Positions 1-33,339 of a stretch of DNA of 37,170 bases are shown here, piece by piece. The stretch's first letter is position 1, and each line of letters begins with the position of its first letter. Under the pieces are notes generated by a model. The model saw only the letters and a program-made list of their open reading frames with translations, ran no database searches and had not been told where the DNA came from. The position numbers and the translations under genes were made by a program. Origin of the DNA: Chiloscyllium plagiosum (lineage: Eukaryota); NCBI RefSeq assembly GCF_004010195.1, contig NC_057757.1, forward strand, positions 8,235,902-8,273,071. The letters are read 5' to 3'.

Positions 1-262
1 ATTGTCTTGCCACTTTCAGGGAGCTATGGAATTGCACCCCAAGATCCTCTGTACATCAATGATTCCAATTTTCCTGCTATTTACTGTATACTTTCATCTT
101 GCCAATTTTGATCTGCCAAAATGCATCACTTCACACTAGTCTGGATAAAACCCCATCTGCCATTTCACCAATCAACTTTCAACTGACCTCTGGCCTGCTG
201 AACTTTCCACAACCTTACTCACTGTCTGCTTCTCCGCCGATTTCTGTGTCATTTACGAACTT
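1..262 (-). mobile_element. CR1-type LINE fragment (RT 3' region)
   Basis: Typical CR1 minus-strand text (gccactttcagggagctatgga...ccaaaatgcatcacttcacac...ccatctgcca). Counterpart of 19496-19757. Confidence 0.75.
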
Positions 263-269
263 GATGGCA

Positions 270-570
270 TAAACATCTCATGAACTGCTGTAATATCAAA
301 GAGTAAGCAATGGTGCTGAACATGGTGCACTCATTAATAATGAACATTCTCACTTATGAACTTATAATGGATGGAAGGCCATTGATGTAACAGCTGGAGA
401 TGATTGTTCCGAGGACACTGCCAGGTGAAATTCCTATGGAGATGTACTGGAGCTGAGATGACTAGCCTCTAGCTATCATACATATCTTCATATGTGCCAG
501 ACATGCTTCCAACCAGCAGAGAATGTTCCCCTGATTCCCATTGACTCCAGTTATGTTCAGGCTCCTCGAT
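270..570 (-). mobile_element. L2/CR1-superclade LINE RT fragment
   Basis: Degenerate RT core (GVPQGSVLGP- and FADD-like segments on the minus strand). It is the continuation of the element whose 3' part is seen at 17718-18870. Confidence 0.65.
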
Positions 571-1767
571 AGTTCATGATCATGGTAATAAGGAAATTGA
601 TACTTTCAGTAAGGAGTAAGCTTTGTAGGGGACTACTTAACCAGGGAACAGTACTGTGACACTGGCCTTTTCCAACATTTATGAATGAATCGATAAGTAA
701 TGATCACTGAGATGGCATCAGAGATACATTCAAGAGAACCAATCCAGGACTGATTGTCATATATTCCCAACAGCTGCCTTGTCGGTCAATTAGAAAGTTG
801 CCTTCAGCCCATTAAATTAATAAAGTCTTTCTTGATCCAGATTGCAGTCCTGGGGTTTGACTAATTTCATCTATAAACAGAAAGAAAACATCACAGTTTG
901 ACCTGGTTCTGTGTCAAGGGCAAGTATTAGTAGGACAATATTTAGGGAGAGAGTAGACCCGATTCTGGAAAATGGCATCGTATGGTCCAGTTTATGATTT
1001 ATCAACAGGCAGAAAGCCCTCTCAAACTGGGTAAGAAAGGATTGGGACTGAATAAATTGGAGTCAAAGTTTGACAGGGTTAACTCACTGGGTTAACATCA
1101 AAGAAAGGATGTTTCATTATTTACAAAGACATACTATCACCAAAGGGAAAAGTCAACAAACAAATCCACGAGGTAGAAATTAAGGCAAGTTCTTCTCATG
1201 ATAGAGTACGGATAGAAAATAGACCAGAGATCCAGGCTGAATAGAACAGTTTCAGAGGACAGCTGGAAAAGCCAATATGAGAAACAGAGGGATTATGAGA
1301 AGAAACTGGCAGTGAAGATAGAAATTAATTACAAAGGCTTCTGTAGATATATGATTGGCAAATGTGTAGTAAAGGGAAGACTGAAGATGAGTGCGGAATA
1401 TAAAATGCATTTGTGTATGTGGGGGCATCATTCGGTTATTTAATGAACACTTTATAATGATCTTCACTGAGCAGGTGACAAAGTAATTCAGTAACTTGAG
1501 GTGTTTGAAATTCATGATGAGATATTGGATAGGCTAATCAAACTGACAGGTAATAAGTAAATTGATACCTTTCAGTGAGGTGTAAGCTTTGTAGGGGTCT
1601 ACTTCCTCGGGGATCTATACTGTGGTGCTGGCCTTTGCCGACATTGGCCAATTTATCAATAAATAATAAATACTGAGAAGGCATCTGAATACATTCAGGA
1701 GAACCGATCCAGGACTGACTGTCATCAGTATTCATGTGGAAAACGAGAGAAACTGGAACAGTTCTAA

Positions 1768-2150
1768 GTTGTAAGTTTGCTCACTGAGCTGGGAGGTTTG
1801 TTTTCAGCAATTTCGACACCATCAGTGCAACATCACCAGTGAGCCTCTGATGAGGTACTGGTGTTATGTCCCACTTTCTATTTATGTGTCTTGGTTTCTT
1901 GAGGCGGGCGATATAATTTCCAGTTCTTTTTCTCAAAGGCTGGGAAATGAGGTCCAAATCGATGTGTTTATCGATGAAGTTCCGTTTGAATGTCAGGCCT
2001 CTAGGAATTCTCATGCGTGTCTCTGTTTAGATATTCTCGGATCGATGTATTGTCCCAGTGAAATCAACGTCCATCTTCATCTGTATGGAAGGATACTAGT
2101 GATAGTGGGTCACTTCTTTTGGTAGTTAGTTGGTGTTCGTGTGGCTAGTT
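1768..2150 (-). mobile_element. Penelope-like element 3' fragment: GIY-YIG endonuclease C-terminus plus 3' UTR
   Basis: Minus-strand peptides across the three copies (LATRIHEHQL..KRSDPLSLVSFH.DEDGH; NFIDKHIDLDLISQPLRKRT) fit a PLE GIY-YIG domain. A decayed hammerhead-like motif lies in the UTR. Confidence 0.8.
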
Positions 2151-2589
2151 CAGCCCTCCCTCTGACACTGATCTTTTTCTGGGTGGGGCCGGCCGTCAGC
2201 ATTTTAGCTTCAGGCCCAGCCCCTACCCCTCCCCACCCCGTGTAAGATGGCGTTAATGGCCGCCCTCTCCCCAGGTGTCCATTAGCAGCTACTTCAGAAG
2301 AAAAACTCTTTAAAGAGAAAAAAACAAAACACAAAATGTGCCGACTCTGTGTGTCACCAAACACAATAATATGTATCAGAATGAAAAATCCTCCCACAGT
2401 CAGAGAGGTGAAAGTGATGAAGAAACTGTGTCAAGTCCCAAAGCACATTCTTCCGAAGCACGGCCGACCCCATACTCCAAACATTGTCTCTGCTTTATCT
2501 CTAGCTCGGCAAATGCTGCCAGACCTGAGTCACAATGAAAAGGTACTCTTGGGGTGAGTCCTCATTCAGAATTCTCATCCAGTTCAGTG

Positions 2590-2890
2590 GCGGACAGGGT
2601 ACAATATGGTAAAGTGTGTGAATTTATGTACTGGGATTAGAAGGAGAGAGGTGCAGACTGTTTTCTGAATGAGGAAAAGTTTCAGAAATCTGAAGCAGAA
2701 AGGGGCTTGTTAGCCCGTGTTCAGGATTTTTTTCAGGTTAAAATGCAACTTCAGTTGGCAGTGAGGAAGGTAAATGGAACGTTATGTTTGTTTGAGAAAG
2801 TTAGGATACCACAGCAGAAATATACTGCTCAGGCTGTATAAGGAATTTGGAATACTTTGAGCAGTTTTGGGTCCCATATAGAAGGATAGA
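2590..2890 (+). mobile_element. CR1-type LINE fragment
   Basis: CR1 ORF2 C-terminal-like text (aggaaggtaaatggaacgtt...gctgtataagg...tggaatac...gcagttttggg). Confidence 0.7.
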
Positions 2891-2891
2891 T

Positions 2892-3620
2892 TGTTTTAAT
2901 TTAAAAATATACTTTATTCATGAAGAAGTATACATGCATCCATAGTTACTAAAGAATGTTGGTTCTACACAATAGCATATAAAGAAAATAAAGCAAATAT
3001 TGGAGTTGGACACAATGCAATAAACAAAGCTAAGGCATCTGTTACTTGTGTAAAATGATATTTATATATTTGAACTACCAAAAGGTTCTGATAACAGAAC
3101 AAACACACATTTAACGTTGACAGAAAGACCTCAGATAGTGGTTTTTCCCCACTGTGTCTTGGCAGCAGCTGTCCCATGCTTTAGTGCGTCCCTCAGCACA
3201 TATGCCTGTCTGAAATGTCCCAGTCTACAGATCTTGGTCAGGATCAATGCCTTCCTCTGGAAAACCAATGTGTTTTAGGAAAACTAGAGAGTGTTGTTCA
3301 CCGAGTTGATGGACTTCCAGGCGCAGTCAATGTTTGTCTTGGTGGGCATCTATGGGAACAGACTGAAGAAAACAGCGTCCTGCATCACGGAACTGCTCGG
3401 GATGAAACTTAACAAAAAACTCTTTCTCTCGACTTTTCTTTGCACAGACACATTCCAGCAGAAGATGTGCGATAGTCTCCTTTTCCCCCAACCACTATCA
3501 TCAAACACTTCAGCCATTTTGAGGGCAGCGTCTTTTGTTGGACACAGTCCTGCTATTCAGGAAGTAACTCACAGGTAATGTCCTTCTCATCACCAGCCAA
3601 GCGATGTCTTGGTGCTTGTT
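2892..3620 (-). mobile_element. Tx1-type LINE, 5'-truncated, ORF2 C-terminus plus 3' UTR
   Basis: Minus strand reads NKHQDIAWLVMRRTLPV, a Cys/His zinc-finger-like region and an ORF end, then ATGAATAAAGTATATTTT plus an A-rich tail. Confidence 0.75.
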
Positions 3621-4888
3621 CGGGCACGTGCAGAATCTTGGAAGGAGATCAAGCCAACATGAGGCAGAAGATGGGTGTTTAGGTGGACTACTCCCTCTGC
3701 ATTGTAGATAAGAAGCTGGCCATCAGGTGCAATCTCTCGTACGCGGTGTAAGTCCGCACCATTCCGAGAATCTACGCTGTAGCAGTCACTCCAGCCATCT
3801 TCCACTTCATCTGGAGGTCTAAGATGAGCCACATCCACAGGGAGACCAAGTAGAAAGCTCTGGATAATGAGTGGGTTAATGAATGTACCCAAGCAGTCCA
3901 CGTCCTAATGGCTATCTTTGTGTGTGCTTGCATCAAGCTGCGGGTAGACTCTTTGCACACAAACACCAAGTGTCACTATGTGCTGAGATTCAGCCTGTCC
4001 TTGGTGTTCCTGCGACCTGTTGTGCTTTTCCAGCAACACATTTTCAGCTCTGTCCTTGGTGTTGCCAAGAATGGGACTTGCCTCATTGCCATGAAACACC
4101 CCAAGTCGTGGAAAATTCCATATCACCTGTTCTTCATGGAGAAATTTGGAAAGATAAAAAGTTCCTCAGGGAGTGATCTGCACATAGCATCCTTGAGACT
4201 CTGCAGGAAAAGGAGACTGTCAAAGCCATTTGGCACAATACCTCACACCAGAATTTTCCAACAATCTGAAGGTGAGAAAGGCATTAGCTGTGAGATCCTT
4301 CTTGTATTTCCAGACTGTGTGCACCACCGCACGCTACCCTCAAAGCGGCTGTGGGGGTACTAGAGACTTTCACACATCTCCTTCTGAAAATATGCTTTAA
4401 AGGAAGTGTGGAGAAAAAATGCAGTGGTTTTTGTCGAGGGATCCTGACTGCTCCATCACACAGAACTCTGTGCTCTCTGGTGTGTTCCCGGAATGCAGAG
4501 ACAAACATTGACCGTGTCTGGATGACCATCAATTTGTTAGAAGATACTAGTTGATCTGCCTGGAATTCATTGGACTTCCACAGCAAGGTATTGATCCTTC
4601 CCAACAGTTGCAGACTGGCATGTTCCAAGGTCCAGAACTATGTGCTGAGGGGAAAGAACACTGTCGGAGATCTTCCTCCTGAGGTTAAATGGGACTGTTC
4701 AGTTATTGGATCCTTCCAGTGCCTCCTCTATATGTTAACATAATCTTGTAAGAAATGCCTTTGGTTTGATTGGTGGATAGAGTCAAACTCTAATCTTTGT
4801 TTTCTTCAATGTGCTACCGTACAGAACTGAACTGTTTGAGTGACTATGTATGGATACAAAGATATTTAATGAAGAAAGGATATTATTT
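3621..4888 (+). mobile_element. Tx1-type LINE, 5'-truncated, ORF2 C-terminal part plus 3' UTR
   Basis: Frameshifted peptides IFHFIWRSKM, MAIFVCACIKL..NTKCHYVLRF, SWKIPYHLFFMEKF, ETFTHLLL.C, AETNIDRVW.TIN. Confidence 0.8.
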
Positions 4889-5145
4889 GGGATGGCACTG
4901 TAGCTCATTGGCTAGCACTGCTGCCTCACAGTGTGAAGGAAACAGATTTGATTCCCACCTTGAGCGACTGTCTGTGTAGAGTTTGCACATTTCCCCCCTG
5001 CCTACAGTGTTTCCTCTGGGTGCTTCTCCCACAACCTAAAGATGTGCAGGTAAGGTGAATTCGCCATGCCACATTGCCCATAGTGCGAAGTGCACTAGTC
5101 AGTGGTAAATGTCGGGCAATGGGTCTGGGTATGTACTCTTCGGAG
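4889..5145 (+). mobile_element. HE1-like tRNA-derived V-SINE
   Basis: Head ggcactgtagctcattggctagcactgctgcctcacag and V-domain ctgtgtagagtttgcacattt...aaagatgtgcaggtaaggtgaatt. Confidence 0.85.
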
Positions 5146-5238
5146 GTGAAAATGTGTTGCTGGAAAAGCGTAGCAGGTCAGGCAGCATCCAGGGAACAGG
5201 AGAATGGACGTTTCGGGCATAAACCCTTCTTCAGGAAA
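5146..5238 (-). mobile_element. Short Penelope-derived terminal repeat with a hammerhead-like motif
   Basis: Minus strand CCTGAAGAAGGGTTTATGCCCGAAACGTC followed by gatgctgcctgacctgct. Related copies occur at 14944-15088 and 32182-32313. Confidence 0.7.
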
Positions 5239-6129
5239 TGTTCTTTGGAGGCTCTAATCTATATCTTTATTTTAAAATATAAAAAGCATTGAGCTGAAGG
5301 AGGTGGTGAACAAGTCGTGTCAACCGCAGGCTCAGAATGATCTTTCTGAGTAAAGTTCCTATCACTGGACCCAATGAGATAGGCGCACTGTCAGGATTTC
5401 AAACCTTCACTTTCCAATTGTAAATATTGTCTAACTTATACAGTGTGATTGCCAAGTATCACTTTCAATCTGATGTAAACAAAATATTTGTTAAACAACT
5501 GTAAATAATATAACTTTCAGTTAACCTGATTTGACTTCCTGGAGGTTTGATATGGGAATGGAAATTGGATTTTGTTGTCATGTATATCCAAGTATATGAA
5601 TGCACCTGCACAGTGAAAAGTAAAAAATAAGATGTCTCAAAATTATAGGTTCACATCAATTGGTTTGGCTTTTCTCCCAGTCAGAATCTGTCCACTCTGC
5701 TGGAGAATGGGGAAACCGCTATCCAGTAACTGGAAGACCTTTGCTGTCCGATTCTTGAAACTGTTGATCTTCCTGCTGATTCATGGTTTAGCCCCAGTAT
5801 TGGAAGAGAGAAGGTGGAAGCCCTGCATTCAAAAAGAGAGACAGAAAGCAGAAAGAATAGCCCAGTCAGTTTAACATAACACAGGGAAACTGTTGGAAGG
5901 TATTATTAAACCAGATGTAGTAAGATACATTGATCAATTCAAGTTCATCTGGCAGAGTCAAAATCGTTTCGTGATTCTGCTAAATTTCTTTGAGGGTGGA
6001 ACATGTGTCATTGATAAAGGGGACTGTACTGAGCTTGTGTTTTTTTAAATAAGGTGAGAAGGCAAAGGTTATGGCAGGATGTCATAACCTTTGCCTTCTG
6101 AGGCTTTATGTTAGTTGTCCAATTTCCAT

Positions 6130-6830
6130 TTCTTTTTACTCGTTGGCACTTACTGCTACCTCTTCACCGTGGATGTGCAATCCCTTTGCATATCTGTCTC
6201 TCATCAGGATTTTCTGAAGGCTCTCTGATTCTTCCTCAAACAGAGACCTGAACAGTTCCCAACCACTACCATCCGTTTTTGCCAGTATGGTATAATTTGT
6301 AACATTTCTTTGTTAACTTGTCTCACTTTCTCCAAGTCCAATATGTGGTTCTGGCTACCTGTACGAGTCCCTGTTGTATCTATGTCTTTTTGGGGTAATA
6401 TGGAATGTTCTTTGGTCCAGTACCAGATGGGGATCCACCTCCAACACTGCCTCCAATATACTGGTGATGCAATTGATGCTATTACTGGTTATGCAAAAAT
6501 TAGAAGAGAGAAGATCAATTTGCTTCCAATTTCTAAACCTCTCTCATAGCCCTCTGATCCATTTCTGACATTCTTTCCTTGATCTCTGTTTCCATTTCTG
6601 ATAAAGGTTGTACACCAATATCCATTACACACCCATCGACTCCCACAGTTACCTTGAATACTCTTCCTCACATCCTGCTTACTGCAAGAAATCCATTCCA
6701 TTCTCCGTTACTGCATCTTTATCTGTGCTGATGATGTCATCTTTCACACCCCCTCCCCGTGTATCCAACATCACCTCCTTTATCCTCAACTGAGGATTCC
6801 CCTCGTCCACTCTGGTAAATATGGCCACCA
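6130..6830 (+). mobile_element. Penelope-like RT fragment (degenerate)
   Basis: YTNIHYTPIDSHSYLEYSSSHPAYCKKSIPFS matches the PLE RT C-terminal/thumb motif. QYTGDAI resembles a decayed RYIDD. Confidence 0.75.
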
Positions 6831-6849
6831 CTCATATACTCAATGAATC

Positions 6850-7265
6850 AACAAAAGAGGCGATAATAGTTCAGTTGAGAACTTTAAAAAAAGGGGCAGC
6901 CACAGTTTATTGGCACTGACCAAATCCACTGAGGAAAATAGAACTGCAGGATATAAGGCATTTCTGAATGTTAAAACATTTGAGCAGGAGTGGCTGGGGA
7001 TTTCATCTCTCAAATATTGAGTGGGAAATGAACAGAGTGAATGGCTCTGAGAACACCAAATTCTAGTATCATATTTAACTAAGCGCATCAGCACAAAATA
7101 GCACAATGATACAGATAGCAAGTCCAGGTGTAATCTTCTGAAATGAAGCCAGGACTTTGGATGAATTGCCAGAGAAGGAGTATTTTTGAGTCAGTGACAT
7201 TAGTACAGTCAGAATTAGCACAAATATGGAACAAGAGAAAGACAACAAGGGTAGAGCTTTGGTGT
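6850..7265 (+). mobile_element. Old CR1 endonuclease-region fragment
   Basis: ggggatttcatctctcaaatattgagtggg resembles GDFNFPNIDW. Confidence 0.5.
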
Positions 7266-7279
7266 CTGCTGCAGGCAAG

Positions 7280-8152
7280 TAGAGTCATAAGGATGTACAG
7301 CCCGGAAACAAACCCTTCAGAGCAACTCATCCATGGTGACCACATATCCCAACCTAATCTAGTCCCACTTGCCAGCACCTGGCTTGTATCCCTCCAAACC
7401 CCTCCTACTCATATACCCACCCAATTGTACCAACCTCCACCACCTCCTCTAGCAGCTCATTCCAAACACATACCAAGCTCTGCGTGATAAAGTTGTCCCT
7501 TAAATCTCATTTATATCTTTCCACTCTCACTCTAAACCTAATCCCTCGATTTCTGGACTCCCCCAACTCGGGAAAATACCTTGTCTATTTACCCTATACA
7601 TCATGATTTTGTAAACATCTATAAGTTCACCCCTTAGCCCCTGATGCTCCAGGGAAACAGCCCCAGCCTTTTCAGCCTCTGCCTATAGCTCAAATCCTTT
7701 AACCCAGGCAACATTCTTACAAATCATTTCTGAAGCCTTTCAAGTTCCAATAGGGAAGAGATCAGAATTATACACAATATTGCAAAAGTAGCCTAACGAA
7801 TGTCCTTATTAGCCACAACATGTCCTCGCAATTCCTATACTCAATCCTCTGACCAATAAAGGAAAGTATACCAAAGGCCTTCTTCACTATACTATCGACC
7901 TGTGAGTCTACTTTCAAGGATCTATGAAGCTGCACTCTAAGGACTCTTTGTTCAGCATCACTCCCTAGAAACTTACCATTAAGTGTATAAGTCCTGCTAA
8001 TATTTGCTTTCCCACAGTTGCACTCACAGTTATCAATATTAAATTCCATCTGCCAATCCTCGGCCATTGGCCCATCTGATCAAGGTCATGTTATAACCTG
8101 AAGTCACCTTCTTTGCTGTACACTACACTTCCAATTTTGGTGTCGTCTGCAA
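7280..8152 (-). mobile_element. CR1/HER1-like LINE 3' fragment (truncated by deletion)
   Basis: tagagtcata tail; minus-strand peptide WQMEFNIDNCE...KKAFGILSFIGQRIEYR...RTFVR. Confidence 0.9.
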
Positions 8153-8233
8153 GTTCGAGTCCCTTGCATTGCAAATAATAAAGGCGCAGTGTGTAACAAG
8201 AATACTATTGTCTGACCAAACGTTTCATCAACA
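8151..8233 (+). mobile_element. 3' remnant of solo LTR
   Basis: Matches 34379-34461, contains AATAAA and ends CAACA. Confidence 0.55.
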
Positions 8234-8244
8234 ATAGCATTATC

Positions 8245-8890
8245 GAGTCATTGAGCTTCCAGCATGGAAACAGGAACTTTGGTCCAACTCGTTCACACTG
8301 ACCACATATCCTAAATTAATCTAATCCCATTTGCCTTTGGTTGGCCCATATCCCTCCTATTCATATACCAATCCAGATGCCTTTTAAATATTGTAATTGT
8401 ACTCGCCTCCATAGCATACTCTGGCAGCTCATTCTATGCATGTACCACCGTCTGAGTGAAAAAAAAGTCATTATGTCCCTTCTAAAATTTTTCTTTCTCA
8501 CCTTAAACCTATGCAATCTAGTTTTGGATGGTGCTATCCTGAAAAAGAAATACACACACAGCTTGGCAATTAACCCTATCTATGTCACTCATCACCTTTC
8601 AAACTTTGATGAGGTCACCCCTCAGCCTCTGACACTCCAGTGAAAACGGCCACAGCCTTTTCAGCCTCTCCTTCGAGCTCAAACCCTCCAACCCTGGCAA
8701 AAAAACGTGTACTTCCTTTCTGCACCCTTTCAAGTTTAACAACATCCTTCCTATAGCAGGTAGGTCAGAATTGAACATGGCATTCCAAATGTGACCGAAC
8801 CAATGTGCGAGACAGCCGAAACATGACCACGCAACTGCTATACACAATGCACTATCCAGTACAGGCAAGCTTACTAAACACCTTCTTCGG
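8245..8890 (-). mobile_element. CR1/HER1-like LINE 3' fragment
   Basis: LPGLEGLS.KERLKRL..FSLE.QRLRGDLI.V on the minus strand; gagtcat tail. Confidence 0.9.
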
Positions 8891-8899
8891 TCATCCTGC

Positions 8900-9093
8900 T
8901 GTAGTCCGAGTGGACCCAGAGGTGCTCTCTTATTACTGAGACACAACCATTGTGAGTTTAATCTGAGGGTGACCGTGCCACAGGAGAAGGACAAGGTTGA
9001 GAAGGTGGGGCTTTCCTGTGATCTCAGACAGTGTGTGAATTGAACCTGTGCTGTTGGTGTCACTCAACATCACAAACCAGCCATTCAGCCAAC
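8900..9093 (-). mobile_element. tRNA-derived SINE
   Basis: Minus strand GTTGGCTGAATGGCTGGTTTGTGATG...GGTTCAATTC (A/B-box-like head). Confidence 0.65.
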
Positions 9094-9104
9094 ACTGCTG
9101 AAGG

Positions 9105-9220
9105 AGTTCAGTTAGTACAGTTGGCTGGAAGGATGGTGTGAGATGTAGAGAGGTGAGGTGATCCTTAGGTTAAACTCAACATTAGCTTTCTTTGTCCATG
9201 AGGGAAAAGCCCTCTGGAAC
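9105..9220 (+). mobile_element. tRNA-derived SINE, same family, internally deleted
   Basis: ttagtacagttggctggaaggatggt head and gtgatccttaggttaaactca body match the reverse complement of 8900-9093. Confidence 0.5.
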
Positions 9221-11174
9221 AAGGGGAATTCCTTCCATGTCCCTTTGTCAAAATCTTGGAAAATCGCTCGCCCCTGCTCTCCTTCACACCAGCTGCCAAT
9301 TGTTTGTCCAGCATTAGCAGTGCAGTGGTACAAGAAAGTAGCTGCCACAACATTATCAAGGAAAATAAATTGTGGCTCAACCATCGAAGGCCAAGTCGAT
9401 TTAATTGAATAAACACATCTGAACAAAGCATTTTGACAGCGAAGATTATCCCCGCTGCATTGTGTGGAGGTGTGTGTTGAACGGAAAAGGTTGTTCCCAC
9501 TGCTGCAAGGGAATTCAGCAGATTGTTGAATGGTCACTTGGACCACATTTTAACTATGATGACATTCATTGAGCACAGAACAGTGCTGGCTCAATTTTCT
9601 TTGAGAAGTTTTTGAACTGGAACGTTTTTTCAGACTGCACTGTCAGGAGTCCACATAGCAGATTATAAAATCACTGCCGCTGAAAGTTAGAAAAAGTTTG
9701 TGTAATCCTGAAAAATAGTCGATATTTGGTCAGTCCTTGTCTCAGATTTACTTGTAAGCATCGTGATCCAAAACTGTTCCGTGTTTATATTTGAAAGGAA
9801 TAAAATATAGTCCCCTTGCCAACAGCGCTGGAAATTTGTTGCCGTTATTGCAACGAGAGAGTGTTCTGTAACCAGAATTGAAGCTGTAATTGTATGAGAG
9901 CATTGTTATCTCTGATGTTGTTGTGACATAACACAAGTATCAGGACAACACAGTAACTTCTAGAGTAAGCAGTTTCACATTCAAACCGGCAAGGAGTGAT
10001 GACTGTTAGTATAAGGGCATGATATCACGAGCATACTCAAGATATTGTGTGAGAGAAGAGTTTCTGTCCCCTGTCATCTGGGGACAGGCTTACTGTCAAT
10101 ACTTCAATACCTCATTTTCCAGTTGTAAATGTTGTCTTACTGAATTATCCAATGTTGCCAACTAATGTTTTCAATGTGATATACACAAAATAAACCATAC
10201 CTGAGTGGATTTGTAAAATGACTGTAAATAATGTAACTGTTTAGTCAACCTAATTGATTCCATAGAAGTTTGCTTTAAGACTGACAAACAGAATTAGGTT
10301 TTATATGCATATGTCCTCAAGTGTAAGAATACATGAGGACAGTATAAAGATACAGAATTACCATTCTCTGCTGCATTGTGGTATCAAAACCAAGATATCT
10401 GCAATAGTATAGATTCAATTCTAATGCTTTGGCCACACACCAGTCAGAATGTTTCAGTTCCTAAAGAATGCATCTGCTCTAATGGAGAATGGGAAGCCAC
10501 TATCCAGCGAGTGAAAGAGCTTTCCTATCAGATTCCTGAAACTGTTCCTTATTCTGGTAATTCATGATTCAGTCCCAGTGTTTTGGAAGACAGCCCTGCA
10601 TCCAAAAAAGGAGTATGAAATCTGGAAACATTAACCAATTAATTTAACACGTCACAGGGATTTCTTTGAGAATGTAACATAGGTCATTGACAAAGTGAAT
10701 GCAGAGAGCATAACTTTTCTTTAAATGAAGTGACACATCATTTAAAGGTCTCGACAGGAATTAAAAAGGTTCAAAGTGTGAGGGAAATGTTCTCTCCTCA
10801 GTCGAACTTCAGAAAACATTAGTTCACATCTCAATGTATTTCATCTGCAGGAGGCTGAGAGTTGATAATGTACAATGTGTGAGGTGCATTTTCATTTGCA
10901 AAGCTGAGACAAATGATTCTGAAGCTGTCAGTCAGCCAGCCATTTGCTTATGGTATCCATTTCATGTTAGCACAGCACTGACATTGACTTTGTATACAGG
11001 GAAAGGCAAGAATGTTTGGGGGTTTGGGAATCCAAGTCAATGAATCATTGAGTCACTCAGTGCCATATCCATTCTGACCGTTTTACCCTAGAAATCTCCA
11101 TTTACTCTGTCTCCCTTCAAATTCACAGCACATGTTATCAGTGTTCCAAGCTAACAAAAGTGGGCCACATATAA

Positions 11175-11420: not shown

Positions 11421-11988
11421 GATACACGCATTCACAGTAATACATCTAGATGGACATTGACAATAAGAGTGAGTTCAATGCCGTCTTCATTTTTGGAAGT
11501 CCACCTTGTTCACTAAGTTCTTTTCCCTCAGGAAAAGTATTATGCTCTCCTCACTTTGTCCTTCACTTGACTCCAGATCATGTAAAATTGGTGGTTAGTG
11601 AATAAGTGCTGACCTCAGCAGCAATGCGCACATTCAGTGTGTGCAAAGAATCACAATTCAATCAGTGAGTGAAATGCTCTTGTTTAAAGAGGCCAGTTCC
11701 TAACCTCTCGTACAGAAGGACAGCTCAGAGACATAATTTCACACTTGAAATAAACCATCTCGATGCAACATTGTTTGAAATAATTTGTGATCTCCAAATG
11801 GGGGTTATTGCTGGTAGATTCCAGAATTGCTTTTGTTATTTTATTATAATATGCTGAGCAGAAATGCCTCACCATAATTTGGATTAAACACATTGTTGTA
11901 ATTAGTTATTCATTGTCAGAAATGCAAAAAAAAGCAACAAAGTTGAGCAATACTGCAATCTCGATCTCCCCAAGGAGCTTCGACACAG

Positions 11989-11994
11989 TATAAG
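11989..11994 (+). promoter_or_regulatory. Candidate TATA-like box for the GPCR gene
   Basis: TATAAG about 90 nt upstream of the ATG at 12079 in non-repetitive sequence. Positional inference only. Confidence 0.3.
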
Positions 11995-12078
11995 TCAACG
12001 TCTCTGGGAATGCATCAGCTCAGAGCTTCTAAGAATCCTATCAGTTGCCGTAAGGGACAGATCACCTCGCATGGAAAA

Positions 12079-12145
12079 ATGCACCGACCAATTGATCAAG
12101 TGAAGCAAGTGTTCGACACCATCCTTGCTTTTGTTGGGCTTCCTG
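12079..12145 (+). CDS. GPR139-like: GPR139/GPR142-like class A GPCR, coding exon 1 (MHRPIDQVKQVFDTILAFVGLP-G)
   Basis: ATG in aaaATGc context, 22 codons plus 1 nt encoding a short N-terminus and the first half of TM1, followed by donor G|GTAAG at 12146. It joins in phase 1 to GT-AAT at 13517, rebuilding the TM1 motif GLPGN. Confidence 0.85.
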
Positions 12146-12417
12146 GTAAGGCATTATGACATTTGATCCTATTTTAAACTGCTGTTGATCTGATCACTGG
12201 TTTCATCTTTTGAATAATAATGTCTCCAGTTCACTGACTGGCCAGTCTTATCCACACACTCGAACAGTGAAAGCAATTCACTGAACAGAATTCTCGGTAC
12301 AATTCTCCACTGATGGAGACACCCAACGTTCAAACGCTCTGCATTTTCTGATTTTGCATTCTGTCATCTGTTCTGGTTTCATATGGTTTGAAGATATGCG
12401 GAGAGATTATGCAAGTT

Positions 12418-12510
12418 ACTTCTGAGGAAGTGCGACTGGACCCGAAACATGAACTCTGCTTTCTTTCTCACAGATGCTGCTAGTATTGCCGAACATTTTC
12501 TGTTTTGTTA
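12418..12510 (+). mobile_element. Short Penelope-derived repeat in the GPCR intron
   Basis: ctgaggaag...actggacccgaaac..aactctg..cacagatgctgc. Same family as 33205-33304 on the minus strand. Confidence 0.6.
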
Positions 12511-13516
12511 TACAAATGAAGCCTGCTTACTTGAGAAATTTGAAGTTTAAGAGATGATCTGAGCGAAGTCCTATAATAAAGGAAAAGACAGGAAAAGATT
12601 AATCACTTCCATTGTTTGGAGATTCCAGGATGAGGGAGAAGACTCTGGGATTGATATCCTGAGTATTCTGAAGAGATTTTAAAAAGCACTTCAACACATA
12701 AAAGGGTGGGAGAGGCAAATGGCAATCGATACTGGATCATTTTAAATGAGATAGTACTATTTTTTGGTAATCAAAGGCGTAGAAGGACATGTGCCTGATT
12801 TTGATTTGTAAAGTTTCATCTAATTACCACCCCTTTTGGAAATTCCCTCCTCTCGTCACATCTGTTCAGGAGACTGAAATTTTGACAGATTGCCCTCCTG
12901 ATCTCTACACGTTAAGATGTTTGTCATGCACAGATATATCAATTTACAGTGCAAATATCACAACAATCCTAACATTCTCAGATTGTCACTGAGGGGGCCT
13001 TGCATGCACTGCGATACTGCACTTGTGTAAGGCACATAGAGTAGTCCTGTTTGGCATCTTCTGCAGGCTCAGATTACCTGTTTTCTCGTCCTGCTGTGGC
13101 TTCAGTCAGCATGTGCTCCAATGCTAAAAAGGGGAAGTTTATTTTATCGACAGTCCCATGACTGAGTTGGGAGTGAGGTCTCTAGCGGAGTTCTGTACCT
13201 GCCAGAGTTGGATCTGAGAATCTGTTACACTAATTCAGATAGTTCCCTCGGAAACAAACAACATCACATACTTCTTTCTGCTCTCCTGAGGAGGTGTAGT
13301 GTGCTCAATCCCTGTCCAAACTCCATAATATCTGGAGTGATTGGGTTGGAGGGTTATCTGAAGTGGGTGTGAAAGTATTAAAATTCAAACCCAACATTTC
13401 CACTCACAAAGTTCACCTGGTTTTAGCAGTAAACCCATATTGTTGCACTTTGGAACCAGGCAGGAGGAATTTCTGATCAGTAATTCATTGTTTTATTTTA
13501 CATTTGTCTTCCACAG

Positions 13517-13737
13517 GTAATTTGTTGGTGATTGGTATACTTTCACGGGGAAAGTGCGGGCTTTCCCCTTGCACTAGCCGCTACCTGGTGGTTATGGCAG
13601 CTGCCGATCTGATGGTCATTATTATTGATGTTATAGCGAAGATGTTTAGCTATTATTATTACCCGCAGTCTTTCCTGAACATCACTCCTGTGTGCAGTGT
13701 TAAGGGGGTCCTATTACGTGCTGCCACGGACTGCTCT
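13517..13737 (+). CDS. GPR139-like: GPR139/GPR142-like class A GPCR, coding exon 2 (partial, truncated by assembly gap)
   Basis: Pyrimidine-rich acceptor tttgtcttccacAG ending at 13516. Translation GNLLVIGILSRGKCGLSPCTSRYLVVMAAADLMVIIIDVI...ITPVCSVKGVLLRAATDCS shows TM1 GN (N1.50), TM2 MAAADL (D2.50) and the PVC cysteine at the top of TM3. No stop before the gap. Confidence 0.9.
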
Positions 13738-14237
13738 NNNNNNNNNNNNNNNNNNNNNNNNNNNNNNNNNNNNNNNNNNNNNNNNNNNNNNNNNNNNNNN
13801 NNNNNNNNNNNNNNNNNNNNNNNNNNNNNNNNNNNNNNNNNNNNNNNNNNNNNNNNNNNNNNNNNNNNNNNNNNNNNNNNNNNNNNNNNNNNNNNNNNNN
13901 NNNNNNNNNNNNNNNNNNNNNNNNNNNNNNNNNNNNNNNNNNNNNNNNNNNNNNNNNNNNNNNNNNNNNNNNNNNNNNNNNNNNNNNNNNNNNNNNNNNN
14001 NNNNNNNNNNNNNNNNNNNNNNNNNNNNNNNNNNNNNNNNNNNNNNNNNNNNNNNNNNNNNNNNNNNNNNNNNNNNNNNNNNNNNNNNNNNNNNNNNNNN
14101 NNNNNNNNNNNNNNNNNNNNNNNNNNNNNNNNNNNNNNNNNNNNNNNNNNNNNNNNNNNNNNNNNNNNNNNNNNNNNNNNNNNNNNNNNNNNNNNNNNNN
14201 NNNNNNNNNNNNNNNNNNNNNNNNNNNNNNNNNNNNN
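13738..14237. other. Assembly gap (exactly 500 N)
   Basis: Run of N with a round length, typical of an unsized scaffolding gap. Confidence 0.98.
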
Positions 14238-18870: not shown

Positions 18871-19757
18871 TATGAACATCGAACAGTAAATCACAGGAGC
18901 AAGTCCTTCAGCCTACCATATCTGTAGCTGACCATGTTGCCATTATAAACTAGTTCCATCTGCCTGCACGTAGTCTGTATCCACCTGTTCCCAGTTTGTT
19001 CATGTGTTGATATAAATGCCTCTTAAATAGCCTTTTGCTATTGTATCTTCTTCTGTTACTTTCCCTGCCAACATGTTCCAGGCACTTACCACCTTCTGTT
19101 CAAAAAGAAACTGGGCTTGCATATCTCTTTCAAACTTTTCCTTTCCCACTTTAAACTTGTGACCCTTCACATTTGACATTTCCATCCTTGGAAAAGCACT
19201 CTAACTCTGCATCTATCAATTTCTCTTCTAAATTTAAATATTTCTATCAGGTTGCCCCTTCAGCCTTCAATGCTCTAGTGAAAATATTCTATCACTCCAA
19301 TCCAAGTAATGGCCTGTTACACGTCTTTTGGAGCTTCTCCAAAGCCTCCACATCCAAACCTGCACTGTACACTATACTCCCAATGTGGCTAAACTAAAAT
19401 TTTATGTATCTGCAACATGATATGCCAAATTTGATACTTAATACCCTCACCAATTAAAACAACTGTGCTGTATGTCTTCTCTACAACCTAATCCTATTGT
19501 CTTGCCACTTTCAGGGAGCTATGGAATTGCACCCCAAGATCCTCTGTACATCAATGATTCCAATTTTCCTGCTATTTACTGTATACTTTCATCTTGCCAA
19601 TTTTGATCTGCCAAAATGCATCACTTCACACTAGTCTGGATAAAACCCCATCTGCCATTTCACCAATCAACTTTCAACTGACCTCTGTCCTGCTGAACTT
19701 TTCACAACCTTACTCACTGTCTGCTTCTCCCCCGATTTCTGTGTCATTTACGAACTT
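18871..19757 (-). mobile_element. CR1-type LINE 3' fragment
   Basis: gaacat/gaacagta tail; peptide KGHKFKVGKEKFERDM..LF.QKVVSAWNML. Confidence 0.85.
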
Positions 19758-21260
19758 GATGGCATAAACATCTCATGAACTGCTGTAATATCAAAGAGTA
19801 AGCAATGGTGCTGAACATGGTGCACTCATTAATAATGAACATTCTCACTTCTGAACTTATAATGGATGGAAGGCCATTGATGTAACAGCTGGAGATGGTT
19901 GTTCCAAGGACACTGCCAGGTGAAATTCCTATGGAGATGTACTGGAGCTGAGATGACTAGCCTCTAGCTATCATACATATCTTCATATGTGCCAGACATG
20001 CTTCCAACCAGCAGAGAATGTTCCCCTGATTCCCATTGACTCCAGTTATGTTCAGGCTCCTCGATAGTTCATGATCATGGTAATAAGGAAATTGATACTT
20101 TCAGTAAGGAGTAAGCTTTGTAGGGGACTACTTAACCAGGGATCAGTACTGTGACACTGGCCTTTTCCAACATTTATGAATGAATCAAGAAGTAATGATC
20201 ACTGAGATGGCATCAGAGATACATTCAAGAGAACCAATCCAGGACTGACTGTCATATATTCCCAACAGCTGCCTTGTCGGTCAATTAGAAAGTTGCCTTC
20301 AGCCCATTAAATTAATAAAGTCTTTCTTGATCCAGATTGCAGTCCTGTGGTTTGACTAATTTCATCTATAAACAGAAAGAAAACATCACAGTTTGACCTG
20401 CTTGTGTCAAGGGCAAGTATTAGTAGGACAATATTTAGGGAGAGAGTAGACCCGATTCTGGAAAATGGCATTGTATGGTCCAGTTTATGATTTATCAACA
20501 GGCAGAAAACCCTCTCAAACTGGGTAAGAAAGGATTGGGACTGAATAAATTGGAGTCAAAGTTTGACAGGGTTAACTCACTGGGTTAACATCAAAGAAAG
20601 GATGTTTCATTATTAACAAAGACATACTGTCACCAAAGGGAAAAGTCAACAAACAAATCCATGAGTTAGAAATTAAGGCAAGTTCTTCTCATGATAGAGT
20701 ACGGATAGAAAATAGACCAGCGATCCAGGCTGAATAGAAAAGTTTCAGAGGACAGCTGGAAAAGCCAATATGAGAAACAGAGGGATTATGAGAAGAAACT
20801 GGCAGTGAAGATAGAAATTAATTACAAACGCTTCTGTAGATATATGAAGAGCAAATGTGTAGTAAAGGGAAGACTGAAGATGAGTGCGGAATATAAAATG
20901 CATTTGTGTATGTGGGGACATCATTCGGTTATTAAATGAACACTTTATAATGATCTTCACTGAGCAGGTGACAAAGTAGTTCAGTAACTTGAGGTGTTTG
21001 AAATTCATGATGAGATATTGGATAGGCTGCTGAAACTGACAGGTAATAAGTAAATTGATACCTTTCAGTCAGGTGTAAGCTTTGTAGGGGTCTACTTCCT
21101 CGGGGATCTATACTGTGGTGCTGGCCTTTGCCGACATTGGCCAATGTATCAATAAATAATAAATACTGAGAAGGCATCTGAATACATTCAGGAGAACCGA
21201 TCCAGGACTGACTGTCATCAGTATTCATGTGGAAAGCGAGAGAAACTGGAACAGTTCTAA

Positions 21261-21651
21261 GTTGTAAGTTTGCTCACTGAGCTGGGAGGTTTGTTTTCAG
21301 ACATTTCGACACCATCAGTGCAAAATCAACAGTGAGCCTCTGATGAAGTTCTGGTGTTATGTCCCACTTTCTATTTATGTGTCTTGGTCTCTTGAGGCAG
21401 GCGATATCATTTCTAGTTCTTTTCCTCAGAGGCTGGGAAATGAGGTCCAAATCGATGTGTTTATCGATGAAGTTCCGTTTGAATGTCAGGCCTCTAGGAA
21501 TTCTCATGCGTGTCTCTGTTTAGATATTCTCGGATCGATGTATTGTCCCAGTCAAATCAGTGTCCATCTTCATCTATATGGAAGGATACTAGTGATAGTG
21601 GGTCACTTCTTTTGGTAGTTAGTTGGTGTTCGTGTATCCTGGTGGCTAGTT
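21261..21651 (-). mobile_element. Penelope-like GIY-YIG fragment (copy B1)
   Basis: Duplicate of 1768-2150; LATRIHEHQLTTKRSDPLSLVSFHIDEDGH. Confidence 0.8.
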
Positions 21652-22391
21652 CAGCCCTCCCTCTGACACTGATCTTTTTCTGGGTGGGGCCGGCCACCAG
21701 CATTTTAGCTTCAGGCCCAGCCCCTACCCCTCCCACCCCGTGCAAGATGGCGTTAATGGCCGCCCTCTCCCCAGGTGTCCATTAGCAGCTACTTCAGAAG
21801 AAAAACTCTTTAAAGAGAAAAAAACCAAAACACAAAATGTGGTAACTCTGTGTGTCACCAAACACAATAATATGTATCAGAATGAAAAACCTCCCACAGT
21901 CAGAGAGGTGAAAGTGATGAAGAAACTGTGTCAAGTCCCAAAGCACATTCTTCCGAAGCACGGCCGACCCCATACTCCAAACATTGTCTCTGCTTTATCT
22001 CTAGCTCGGCAGATGCTGCCAGACCTGAGTCACAATGAAAAGGTACTCTTGGGGTGAGTCCTCATTCAGGATTCTCATCCAGTTCAGTGGCGGACAGGGT
22101 ACAATATGGTAAAGTCTGTGAGTTTATGTACTGGGATTAGAAGGAGAGAGGTGCAGACTGTTTCCTGAATGAGGAAAAGTTTCAGAAATCTGAAGCAGAA
22201 AGGGGCTTGTTAGCCCGTGTTCAGGATTCTTTTCAGGTTAAAATGCAACTTCAGTTGGCAGTTAGGAAGGTAAATGGAACGTTATGTTTGTTTGAGAAAG
22301 TTAGTAAACCAGAGCAGAAATATACTGCTCAGGCTGTATAAGGAATTTGGAATACTGTGAGCAGTTTTGGGTCCCATATAGAAGGATAGAC

Positions 22392-22781
22392 TGTTTTAAT
22401 TTCAAAAATATACTTTATTCATGAAAAAGTATACATGCATCCATAGTTACTAAAGAATGTTGGTTCTACACAATAGCATATAAAGAAAATAAAGCAAATA
22501 TTGGAGTTGGACACAATGCAATAAACAAACCTAAGGCATCTGTTACTTGTGTAAAATGATATTTATATATATTTGAACTACCAAAAGGTTCTGATAACAG
22601 AACAAACACACATTTAACTTTGACAGAAAGACCTCAGATAGTGGTTTTTCCCCACTGTGTCTTGGCAGCAGCTGCCCCATGCTTTAGTGCGTCCCTCAGC
22701 ACATATGCCTGTCTGAAATGTCCCAGTCTGCAGCACTTGGTCAGGATCAATGCCTTCCTCTGGAAGACCAATGTATTTTAG
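22392..22781 (-). mobile_element. Tx1-type 3' end (cut by the tandem duplication junction)
   Basis: Duplicate of 2892-3278. Confidence 0.7.
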
Positions 22782-23112
22782 TATTAAATGAACACTTTAT
22801 AATGATCTTCACTGAGCAGGTGACAAAGTAGTTCAGTAACTTGAGGTGTTTGAAATTCATGATGAGATATTGGATAGGCTGCTGAAACTGACAGGTAATA
22901 AGTAAATTGATACCTTTCAGTCAGGTGTAAGCTTTGTAGGGGTCTACTTCCTCGGGGATCTATACTGTGGTGCTGGCCATTGCCAACATTTGCCAATGTA
23001 TCAATAAATAATAAATACTGAGAAGGCATCAGAATACATTCAGGAGAACCGATCCAGGACTGACTGTCATCAGTATTCATGTGGAAAACGAGAGAAACTG
23101 GAATAGTTCTAG

Positions 23113-23503
23113 GTTGTAAGTTTGCTCACTGAGCTGGGAGGTTTGTTTTCAGACATTTCGACACCATCAGTGCAATATCATCAGTGAGCCTCTGATGAAG
23201 TGCTGGTGTTATGTCCCACTTTCTATTTATGTGTCTTGGTCTCTTGAGGTGGGCGATATCATTTCTAGTTCTTTTTCTCAGAGGCTGGGAAATGAGGTCC
23301 AAATCGATGTGTTTATCGATGAAGTTCCATTTGAATGTCAGGCCTCTAGGAATTCTCATGCGTGTCTCTGTTTAGATATTCTCGGATCGATGTATTGTCC
23401 CAGTCAAATCAGTGTCCATCTTCATCTGTATGGAAGGATACTAGTGATAGTGGGTCACTTCTTTTGGTAGTTAGTTGGTGTTCGTGTATCCTGGTGGCTA
23501 GTT
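23113..23503 (-). mobile_element. Penelope-like GIY-YIG fragment (copy B2)
   Basis: Duplicate of 21261-21651. Confidence 0.8.
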
Positions 23504-23933
23504 CAGCCCTCCCTCTGACACTGATCTTTTTCTGGGTGGGGCCGGCCGCCAGCATTTTAGCTTCAGGCCCAGCCCCTACCCCTCCCCACCCCGTGCAAGA
23601 TGGCGTTAATGGCCGCCCCTCCCCAGGTGTCCATTAGCAAATACTTCAGAAGAAAAACTCTTTAAAGAGAAAAAACCAAAACACAAAATGTGCCGACTCT
23701 GTTGTCACCAAACACAATAATATGTATCAAAATGAAAAATCCTCCCACAGACAGAGAGGTGAAAGTGATGAAGAAACTGTGTCAAGTCCCAAAGCACATT
23801 CTTCCGAAGCACGGCCGACCCCATACTCCAAACATTGTCTCTGCTTTATCTCTAGCTCGGCAGATGCTGCCAGACCTGAGTCACAATGAAAAGGTACTCT
23901 TGGGGTGAGTCCTCATTCAGGATTCACATCCAG

Positions 23934-24011
23934 NNNNNNNNNNNNNNNNNNNNNNNNNNNNNNNNNNNNNNNNNNNNNNNNNNNNNNNNNNNNNNNNNNN
24001 NNNNNNNNNNN
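23934..24011. other. Assembly gap (78 N)
   Basis: Run of N. Its flanks map to about 22082 and 22412 in the adjacent duplicate, implying about 330 bp missing. Confidence 0.95.
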
Positions 24012-24722
24012 ACTTTATTCATGAAAAAGTATACATGCATCCATAGTTACTAAAGAATGTTGGTTCTACACAATAGCATATAAAGAAAATAAAGCAAATA
24101 TTGGAGTTGGACACAAAGCAATAAACAAACCTAAGGCATCTGTTACTTGTGTAAAATGATATTTATATATATTGAACTACCAAAAGGTTCTGATAACAGA
24201 ACAAACACACATTTACCTTTGACAGAAAGACCTCAGATAGTGGTTTTTCCCCACTGTGTCTTGGCAGCAGCTGCCCCATGCTTTAGTGCGTCCCTCAGCA
24301 CATATGCCTGTCTGAAATGTCCCAGTCTGCAGCACTTGGTCAGGATCAATGCCTTCCTCTGGAAGACCAATGTATTTTAGGAAAACTAGAGAGTGTTGTT
24401 CACCGAGTTGATGGACCTCCAGGATCAGTCAATGTTTGTCTTGGTGGGCATCTATGGGAACAGACTGAAGAAAACAGCGTCCTGCCTCACGGAACTGCTC
24501 GGGATGAAACTCAACAAAAATACTCTTTCTCTCAACTTTCTTTGCAAAGGCACATTCCAGCAGAAGATGTGCGATAGTCTCCATCTCCCCCAACCACGAT
24601 CATCAAACACTTCAGCCATTTCGAGGGCAGCGTCTGTTGGTGGACACAGTCCTGCTATTCAGGAAGTAACTCACAGATAATGTCCTTCTCATCACCAGCC
24701 AAGCGATGTCTTGGTGCTTGTT
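24012..24722 (-). mobile_element. Tx1-type LINE 3' fragment (copy B)
   Basis: Duplicate of 2892-3620. Confidence 0.75.
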
Positions 24723-26034
24723 GGGGCACGTGCAGAATTTTGGAAGGAGATCAAGCCAACATGAGGCAGAAGCTGGGCATTTAGGTGGACTACTCCCTCT
24801 ACATTGTAGATAAGAAGCTGGCCATCAGGTGCAATCTCTCATACGCGGTGTAAGTCCGCACCATTCCCAGAACCTACGCTGTGGCAGTCACTCCAGCCAT
24901 TTTCCACTTCATCTGGAGGTCTAAGATGAGCCACATCCACAGGGAGACCAAGTAGAAAGCTCTGGATAATGAGTGGGTTAATGAATGTACCCAAGCAGCC
25001 CACATCCTAATGGCCATCTTTGTGTGTGGCTGCATCAAGCTGCGGGTAGACTCTTTGCACACAAACACCAAGTGTCACTATGTGCTGAGATGCAGCCTGT
25101 CCTTGGTGTTCCTTTGACCTGCTGTGCTTTTCCAGCAACACATTTTCAGCTCTGACCTTGGTGTTGCCAAGAATGGGACTTGCCTCGTTGCCATGAAACA
25201 CTCCAAGTCGTGGAAAATTCCATATCACCTGTTCTTCATGGAGAAATTTGGAAAGAACAAAAATCCCTCAGGGAGTGATCTGCACATAGCATCCTTGAGA
25301 CTCTGCAGGAAAAGGAGACTGTCAAAGCCATTTGGCACAATACCTCACACCAGAATTTTCCAACAATCTGCAGGTGAGAAAGGCATTAGCTGTGAGATCC
25401 TTCTTGTATTTCCAAACTATGTGCACCACCGCCGCTACCCTCAAAGCGGCTTGGGGGTGCTAGAGACTGTCACACATCTCCTTCTGAAAATATGCTTTAA
25501 AGGAAGTCTGGAGAAAAAATGCAGTGGTTTTTGTCGAGGTATCCTGACTGCTCCATCACACAGAACTCTGTGCTCTCTGGTGTGTTCCCCGGAATGCAGA
25601 GACAAACATTGACCGTGTCTGGACGAGTATCTTCAATTTGTTAGAAGATACTCGTTGGTCTGCCTGAAATTCATTGATCTTCCACAGCAAGGTATTGACC
25701 CTTACCAACTGTTGCAGACTGGCATGTTCCAAGGTCCAGGACTATGTGCTGAGGGACACAGTAAAGCTTAGGGCAGCTACCTCAAAGGGGCAGTGGGGAA
25801 AGAACACTGTCTGAGATCTTCCTCCTGAGGGTAAATGGGACTGTTCAGTTATTGGATCCTTCCAGTGCCTCCTCTATATGTTAACATAATCTTGTAAGAA
25901 ATGCCTTTGGTTAGATTGGTGGATAGAGTCAAACTACAATCTTTGTTTTCTTCAATGTGCTACCGTACAGAACTGAACTGTTTGAGTGACTATGTATGCA
26001 TACAAAGATACTTAATGAAGAAAGGATATTATTT
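24723..26034 (+). mobile_element. Tx1-type LINE 3' fragment (copy B)
   Basis: Duplicate of 3621-4888. It retains the ORF end (VQDYVLRDTVKLRAATSKGQWGKNTV) that is partly deleted in copy A. Confidence 0.8.
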
Positions 26035-26246
26035 AGGATGGCACGGTGGCTCATTGGCTTCACAGTATGAAGGAAACAGGTTTGATTTCCACCTTGAGCG
26101 ATTGTGTGTAGAGTTTGCACATTTTCCCTCTGTCTACAGTGTTTCCTCTGGGTGCTTCTCCCACAACCTAAAGATGTGCAGGTAAGGTGAATTCGCCATG
26201 CCACATTGCCCATAGTGCTAAGTGCACTAGTCAGTGGTAAATGTCG
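26035..26246 (+). mobile_element. HE1-like V-SINE (copy B, cut by gap)
   Basis: Duplicate of 4889-5114. Confidence 0.85.
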
Positions 26247-26300
26247 NNNNNNNNNNNNNNNNNNNNNNNNNNNNNNNNNNNNNNNNNNNNNNNNNNNNNN
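26247..26300. other. Assembly gap (54 N)
   Basis: Run of N. Its flanks map to 5114 and 5348 in copy A, implying about 230 bp missing. Confidence 0.95.
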
Positions 26301-27860: not shown

Positions 27861-28298
27861 TCATATACTCAATGAATCAACACAAGAGGCGATAATAGTT
27901 CAGTTGAGAACTTTTTAAAAAGGGGCAGCCACAGTTTATTGGCACTGACCAAATCCTCTGAGGAAAATAGAAGTGCAGGATGTAAGGCATTTCTGAATGT
28001 TAAAACATTTGAGCAGGAGTGGCTGGGGATTTCATCTCTCAAATATTGAGTGGGAAATGAACAGAGTGAATGGCTCTGAGAACACCAAATTCTTGAATCA
28101 TATTTAACCAAGCGCATCAGCACAAAATAGCACAATGATACAGATAGCAAGTCCAGGTGTAATCTTCTGAAATGAAGCCAGGACTTGCTAGAGAGGGAGT
28201 ATTTTTGAGCCAGTGACATTAGTACAGTCACAATTAGCACAAATATGGAACAAGAGAAAGACAATAAGGGTAGAGCTTTGATGTCTGCTGCAGGCAAG

Positions 28299-32313: not shown

Positions 32314-32399
32314 GATGGCCTCATTTTGGACAGTGATGTCATTGAAACCAATTAAATGGCCCAATACCAAAAATTTCCTAACATAACACGCTAGGCAGG

Positions 32400-33150: not shown

Positions 33151-33204
33151 ATGGCCTGTTTCTACATTATAGAGGTTCTGTATGAAAGAGGTGTTGAAAC
33201 AGAA

Positions 33205-33304: not shown

Positions 33305-33339
33305 TAATTTGATCGGGTTCTCCAAAATCAAGCCCAATG

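Follow-up and report, generated by a model that had tools for sequence, protein, structure and literature searches.

What kind of receptor does Chiloscyllium plagiosum encode between positions 12079 and 13737 of the analysed 37,170-nt stretch of DNA (hereafter the window), and how does it relate to GPR139, whose name most of its relatives carry? The candidate receptor gene is represented by its first third only, namely exon 1 and the visible part of exon 2, and the remainder lies in an assembly gap:

12079..12145, plus strand: coding exon 1 (67 nt; 22 codons plus one base from the start ATG at 12079), encoding most of TM1 behind a very short N-terminus; full-length relatives have matching N-termini
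12146..13516, plus strand: intron (1371 nt, GT-AG, phase 1) inside a TM1 Gly codon
13517..13737, plus strand: visible part of coding exon 2, encoding the end of TM1, ICL1 (RGKCGLS), TM2, ECL1 and the first half of TM3 with Cys3.25
13738..14237, no strand: assembly gap of 500 N, which begins in TM3 and hides the rest of exon 2

The splice joint was predicted from sequence and homology, with a donor GTAAGG at 12146 and an acceptor ...TTCCACAG ending at 13516; the phase-1 intron splits the Gly codon immediately 5' of the TM1 Asn. Spliced reading of the visible part yields 288 nt, or 96 codons, with zero stops and zero frameshifts. The protein carries RGKCGLS in ICL1 and MAAADL in TM2 together with N1.50, D2.50 and C3.25, and the later class A motifs fall in the gap. 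The receptor gene at 12079 is real. The first-pass annotation had described a two-exon receptor with a tiny N-terminus, a phase-1 intron in TM1 and these two motifs, and had named stops or frameshifts in the gap-filled exon, coupled with no expression, as grounds against its reading. All of these details were recovered by the spliced reading and the visible 96 codons are intact; of the complete two-exon receptor, the start, the intron and the 96 codons stand, and the rest is hidden by the 500-N gap from TM3 onwards.

A search with the 7tm_1 profile gave E 0.0036 for the window fragment, which misses the cut-off, and 65-75 bits for full-length relatives, which pass it. The structural model of the closest full-length relative (P0005; pLDDT 89.8) displayed seven helices plus helix 8, a beta-hairpin in ECL2 and almost no N-terminus, and its fold neighbours were GPR139 first, followed by opioid and neurotensin receptors. 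Judged by motifs and this model, the window fragment and its family are class A (rhodopsin-like) GPCRs.

The nearest full-length relatives are 322 aa long, so about 226 codons and a stop (~680 nt) are missing, which is above the nominal 500 N. Comparison of the DNA to the right of the gap with 120 relatives revealed no convincing match (best E 0.065). A run of 500 N is a scaffolding gap convention, and given the space needed and the lack of a relative match 3' of it, the gap is likely a scaffolding placeholder.

The residue at the splice junction is Gly in the window copy versus Val in 34 of 37 relatives, and because of this replacement the start of exon 2 reads like a splice donor (GTAATT, directly 3' of the acceptor; window 13510-13522). 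Upstream of the gene three further features were found:

11967..11976, plus strand: EBF/Olf-1-like site with one mismatch to the consensus, taken as a lead only
11989..11994, plus strand: TATA-like TATAAG, ~85 nt 5' of the ATG at 12079
12071..12103, plus strand: out-of-frame upstream ATG with a 10-codon ORF that overlaps the start codon

The TATAAG site reads Tyr-Lys at the equal place in mis-extended models from two other sharks, and its sequence is likely conserved. For the EBF/Olf-1-like site about 0.06 occurrences per 150 nt are expected by chance; the stretch at 11967 is conserved, at the level of its protein reading, in one whale shark and one bamboo shark model. EBF is active in olfactory neurons and in B cells. 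The two closest relatives that align upstream read His-Arg-Lys-Met at the 12071 region, which is incompatible with the upstream ATG. Either this ATG or the junction Gly could reduce output of the window copy, and neither proves decay. We rejected an in-frame ATG at 12010 as start codon because it lies 16 nt 3' of the TATA-like box and because the spacing seen most often among family members fits 12079. Summed contig depth in DNA runs was 15-40 times the intron level at 11534-11801 and 11936-12069, which suggests promoter stretches common to many paralogues, or a repeat.

A protein search with exon 2 matched 171 longer proteins. Among the best 120 of these, 118 were named and all were elasmobranch, from 19 species, with 58-75% identity and mostly the label 'probable GPR139'; 96 of these 120 carry RGxCG[LV]S. 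Family counts from these protein searches refer to the matches listed and are lower bounds: Heterodontus has at least 32 members on 16 sequences, 10 of them on one, and five of the seven matches listed for whale shark lie on a single 8.1-Mb contig. With a full-length member as query, 126 representatives of clusters formed at 50% identity reached E 1e-30 or better. Names were looked up for 30 of the 150 representatives listed. Twenty of these, mostly from inside the family, comprised 15 chondrichthyan proteins (one from Callorhinchus), four unnamed and one distant catfish protein; the ten from the distant end comprised two elasmobranch proteins, seven from salamander, coelacanth, teleost, lamprey or amphioxus and one unnamed. 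Family members share the motifs DRF, P5.50 and N-T-x-x-Y.

In a tree of 198 rows (FastTree), Heterodontus, Pristiophorus and Mobula genes formed subclades of their own species, and a chimaera gene nested within the shark and ray family. The expansion therefore likely predates the split of chimaeras and elasmobranchs and is still running. In an IQ-TREE run of 40 rows the window fragment fell in a family subclade (support 100/100) and grouped with whale and zebra shark genes (100/98). Its first loop, short N-terminus and tree nesting all place the window gene, as far as can be read from the visible third, in a chondrichthyan GPR139-like expansion, and clustering together with the subclades indicates birth-and-death evolution of the family. 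The first-pass annotation had proposed such a clustered family and named one or two genomic copies as grounds for dropping it; the 171 matches, the clusters and at least 32 members in Heterodontus agree with the proposal.

If the window gene were instead the one-to-one orthologue of GPR139, it would be a brain sensor of L-Trp and L-Phe. Database names favour this reading, as does human GPR139 being the best solved-structure match for full-length relatives (sequence E 4e-11, fold rank 1); a search of the window fragment against the PDB at E 1 did not find GPR139. The pannexin matches of the fragment (E 0.11 or worse) were rejected as chance. In a structure comparison, P0005 was only 21% identical to human GPR139, as against 70% for the zebrafish orthologue (PMC7318219, excerpt), and an amphioxus receptor scored 101 bits to human GPR139 versus 46 for a shark family member. 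The Trp/Phe-binding pocket of GPR139 is described as E3.32, F3.33, H5.42, W6.48, R6.51 and N7.39 in the excerpted account of PMC7318219. The window protein has L3.32 and R3.33 in place of E3.32 and F3.33, and of the six residues the family keeps W6.48 only (97% of members). The shark family also has Cys3.25 in 96% of its members, which is absent at the aligned place in human GPR139. Aromatic amino acids activate the class A orphans GPR139 and GPR142, and GPR139 shares the two-exon structure (PMC7318219, excerpt); GPR139 is one conserved gene, whereas the shark family comprises dozens or more paralogues, many in each species. Our trees were built without true GPR139 or GPR142 sequences. As far as sequence goes, orthology with GPR139 is refuted, in agreement with the first-pass view that this is not the true orthologue, and we regard such an identity as scarcely credible. 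That view had further suggested an amino-acid, peptide or immune sensing system; since the Trp/Phe-binding residues are not kept, a GPR139-type amino-acid ligand is unlikely.

The family has a close relative outside cartilaginous fish. An amphibian protein (e.g. XP_069092602.1) was represented by 20 clusters, with each species occurring once and 66-74% identity to the newt protein, and a sturgeon protein, 46% identical to the newt protein, joins this clade. The gene is present in all three amphibian orders and sturgeon, is mislabelled as GPR139 and has a nearly invariant pocket; none was seen among amniotes or teleosts in the relative search. The amphibian and sturgeon clade was the sister of the whole shark expansion with support of 100/99 in two IQ-TREE runs (40 and 20 rows). 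Forcing the amphibian clade together with the next clade (that of XP_005988539.1) was rejected (p-AU 0.0059), and outside its own members the amphibian clade scored best against the shark family (175 vs 146 bits). FastTree flagged the sister node for long branches; the node was retained by the two mixture-model trees and the AU test. The sister gene resembles the shark family in C3.55, T3.43, its first loop and a DP-E-RR-S-LL stretch ahead of TM6, and differs in having one copy per species, a nearly invariant pocket (96% identity) and N instead of D at 2.50. A receptor dedicated to one endogenous ligand would be expected to have a pocket of this kind.

Coelacanth, sharks, teleosts, amphibians and reptiles (turtles and squamates) have one-to-one members of the next clade, and no mammal or bird was present among its named rows. 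It is a second single-copy orphan mislabelled as GPR139, and annotation fuses two of its models with TMEM183A, which is likely an adjacent gene. GPR210A/B are GPR139-related orphans of fish, gar and coelacanth, and the available part of PMC6504862 does not mention sharks in this context. To the same neighbourhood belong the 'probable GPR139' genes that are single-copy in bony fish and tetrapods, with ~25-32% identity to the shark family; one such clade includes one-to-one orthologues in sharks and falls outside the expansion. Given a single-copy amphibian and sturgeon sister and a next clade in wider vertebrates, the lineage is an old jawed-vertebrate gene and the expansion alone is chondrichthyan. 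The first-pass annotation thus went too far in calling the system specific to cartilaginous fish; our trees nested the fragment in the chondrichthyan family with this single-copy gene as sister. To our reading of the searched literature, the sister relationship is new here, as is the controlled comparison of binding pockets that follows.

The alignment comprised 167 full-length family members, each covering residues 30-300 of protein P0009 with at least 38% identity to it (shorter matches were left out), and two control clades of 20 amphibian and 59 next-clade proteins. The 28 pocket positions follow a generic list numbered from motifs, with an uncertain anchor in TM4. Identity in the predicted pocket of the family was 33% compared with 60% at other helix positions, and the control clades showed the reverse, with 96% vs 82% in the amphibian and 78% vs 65% in the next clade. 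By permutation the family pocket was low (P<0.0001) and the control pockets were high (P 0.0002 and 0.007). Among 46 close family pairs the pocket differed at 425 of 1285 sites (33%), compared with 1207 of 6887 elsewhere (17.5%), whereas control pairs differed at 7/280 pocket sites vs 203/1503 elsewhere (2.5% vs 13.5%) and at 44/672 vs 552/3678 (6.5% vs 15%). Measured against outer-half helix positions alone, the excess in the family pocket was weaker (P 0.025; 0.06, 0.15 and 0.03 in three taxa). The whole outside face therefore varies; part of the pocket signal is general extracellular variability and could reflect relaxed constraint. Family identity was 63-69% in intracellular regions and 35-46% in extracellular ones, and core activation residues were 96-100% conserved over the 167 paralogues, from chimaera to rays. 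A predicted pocket that varies while the intracellular face stays conserved is, at the level of sequence, the signature of a receptor repertoire, in line with the first-pass likening to chemoreceptor clusters.

The first-pass annotation had also placed the gene inside a large direct repeat. Two copies are found in the window:

1..10942, plus strand: direct repeat copy 1, whose end, set by the window limit, lies 1.1 kb 5' of the gene
19496..37170, plus strand: direct repeat copy 2, interrupted by a 5.2-kb insert (29180-34378), containing a duplicated 1.15-kb block and running out at the window edge

Positions 1-8152 pair with 19496-29179 and 8151-10942 with 34379-37170 at 93-97% identity, with 2.3-4.0% substitutions between copies. 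The last 42 bases of the window equal 10901-10942 exactly and the match shows no breakpoint at the edge. The repeat thus goes on beyond the window, and it is plausible that the gene would recur near 38.3 kb. Within the window neither the gene nor 10943-13737 has a partner, so the repeat itself stands and carriage of the receptor in a tandem unit is deduced from the repeat reaching the window edge. The copies flank the 500-N gap on opposite sides, so their tandem order rests on scaffolding. In one DNA run of a closely matching organism the intron stretch 13219-13385 occurred in two versions, which differ from the window at 2 and 7 sites and have depths of 3.5 and 8.5, depths that are no measure of copy number; a second DNA run gave divergent versions only, among the pieces listed. 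The two versions fit a second, ~96% identical gene copy or deep alleles, and copy-number polymorphism is possible.

Elsewhere in the window, comparison with the 120 relatives revealed no other receptor pieces, only retroelement-like matches that stem from mis-extended models; several database models of the shark family have retroelement-like sequence fused to their N-terminus. Decayed retroelement-like pieces lie on the minus strand at 7280-8888 and 28299-31089. A Pfam scan of 32 of the 44 stop-to-stop ORFs (at least 100 aa) gave none over the cut-off, an Rfam scan of the window gave no match, and one short tandem repeat was found. Positions 16041-18891 hold a head-to-tail duplication of a 1.4-kb unit (95% identical) with no protein family found, and at 20930-23933 a 1.15-kb block is repeated beside a 78-N gap, which may be an assembly overlap.

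Spliced reads across the window intron were absent from the ~2% and ~6% sampled of two single-cell runs of unstated tissue. These runs contained a trace of partial exon 2 matches, and nearly all of the 408 aligned reads were a short repeat near 15056-15090; sampling at this level is evidence neither for nor against expression. In the accessible part of a catshark study, no GPCR is among the 50 genes most specific to a brain-and-olfactory library (PMC11979771); this counts against a sensory repertoire, although each of its genes would be expected to be expressed at a low level. The searched literature, mostly open papers, contained no description of a chondrichthyan expansion. The term GPR139 is absent from the main texts of PMC11979771, PMC8455134 and PMC7677710 and from the readable supplements of PMC8455134, PMC10529500, PMC10115646 and PMC7677710; its absence from one short supplement of a nurse shark spleen paper is a weak test. 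The genes of the family are already catalogued, under the misleading name GPR139.

Sharks have large olfactory organs. Cartilaginous fish are described as GPCR-poor (PMC8455134, excerpt), and about 10-50 olfactory receptors are given for them in the excerpted part of PMC10116579, where the shark family is not among the chemoreceptor families surveyed. The family resembles OR, TAAR, V1R/ORA, V2R/OlfC, FPR and MRGPR receptors in its clustered lineage-specific duplication, variable pocket and conserved intracellular face, and differs from them by having no sequence kinship and an intron in TM1. Closest in kind are the nematode srw receptors, which likewise form birth-and-death clusters and come from the FMRFamide/myosuppressin group, sister to GPR139/142 (PMC2576165, PMC8557429, both in part), and differ in their independent origin. 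The Srw profile (PF10324) matched none of 8 proteins at E 0.001, and a precomputed Srw label was attached to 2 of 120 listed relatives. As far as the excerpts go, srw receptors have been proposed to sense environmental peptides (PMC2576165), and the wider receptor group is neuropeptide-receptor-like and activated by peptides with aromatic C-termini (PMC8557429). By analogy, srw may serve as a precedent for a chemosensory repertoire built from this receptor group.

On this sequence-based evidence we consider it evenly balanced whether the window gene is a single tuning unit within a chemosensory repertoire that responds to peptide-like cues from outside. A GPR139-related ancestor, still single-copy in amphibians and sturgeon, would have given rise to a large clustered and still-duplicating family in cartilaginous fish, growing by segmental duplications on a 20-kb scale of which the window's repeat may be an example. 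Each paralogue would bind different ligands in an open pocket, shaped in the P0005 model by the ECL2 beta-hairpin and a TM3-ECL2 disulfide, and all would signal by one common G-protein route through the conserved intracellular face; expression would be in sensory cells. The bolder form, a fifth vertebrate chemoreceptor family, derived from a neuropeptide-type orphan receptor, that forms the largest sensory repertoire of cartilaginous fish with one receptor per cell in nose or skin, we hold tentatively and with some doubt.

The variable-pocket signature also fits immune or somatosensory repertoires. Receptors on leukocytes or skin cells that detect microbial or damage peptides, like formyl-peptide or mast-cell MRGPR receptors, would show the same pocket variability and clustering. 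MAS1 and its relatives are absent from cartilaginous fish according to the available part of PMC8455134, which would leave this niche open; the two intron versions may indicate copy polymorphism, and the EBF-like site would suit B cells as well as olfactory neurons. Against such an innate-immune or barrier repertoire speak the neuropeptide-receptor-like character of the wider clade (PMC8557429, excerpt) and, weakly, the nurse shark spleen file, and we judge it unlikely. Mrgprs have a tiny N-terminus, tandem clusters and a variable pocket, a likeness that together with the missing MAS1 family (PMC8455134, excerpt) recommends a somatosensory repertoire for itch, pain or solitary chemosensory cells in ganglia and skin, analogous to the rodent receptors. 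No Mrgpr occurs among the sequence or structural neighbours of the family, however, and this role appears distinctly improbable.

Amplification could also be largely non-adaptive, a by-product of segmental duplication with a relaxed outer face and many dead copies, where the window copy may itself be decaying and its repeat may be two haplotypes set side by side by scaffolding. The position of the repeat copies on opposite sides of the 500-N join, the odd junction Gly and upstream ATG of this copy and the lack of RNA support in the sampled single-cell reads are in line with this account. It conflicts with the conservation of core activation residues across the 167 paralogues, with pocket differences that are about twofold over other helix positions even in close pairs and with the unbroken 96 codons, and 2.3-4.0% substitutions over 11 kb plus a 5-kb insert would be high for alleles; we consider it very unlikely.

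For a chemosensory repertoire, which we prefer, the window's own copy contributes little, as it is a 96-codon fragment. The amphibian sister gene is a tractable handle, since knowing what it binds and where it is expressed in Xenopus or axolotl would reveal the starting point of the expansion. If true, a fifth chemoreceptor family would overturn the view of shark smell as resting on 10-50 receptors and would parallel the srw expansion of nematodes. A hidden family of dozens or more paralogues per genome, with a pocket of the repertoire type, would alter the picture of shark receptors, be it in smell, skin sensing or immunity.
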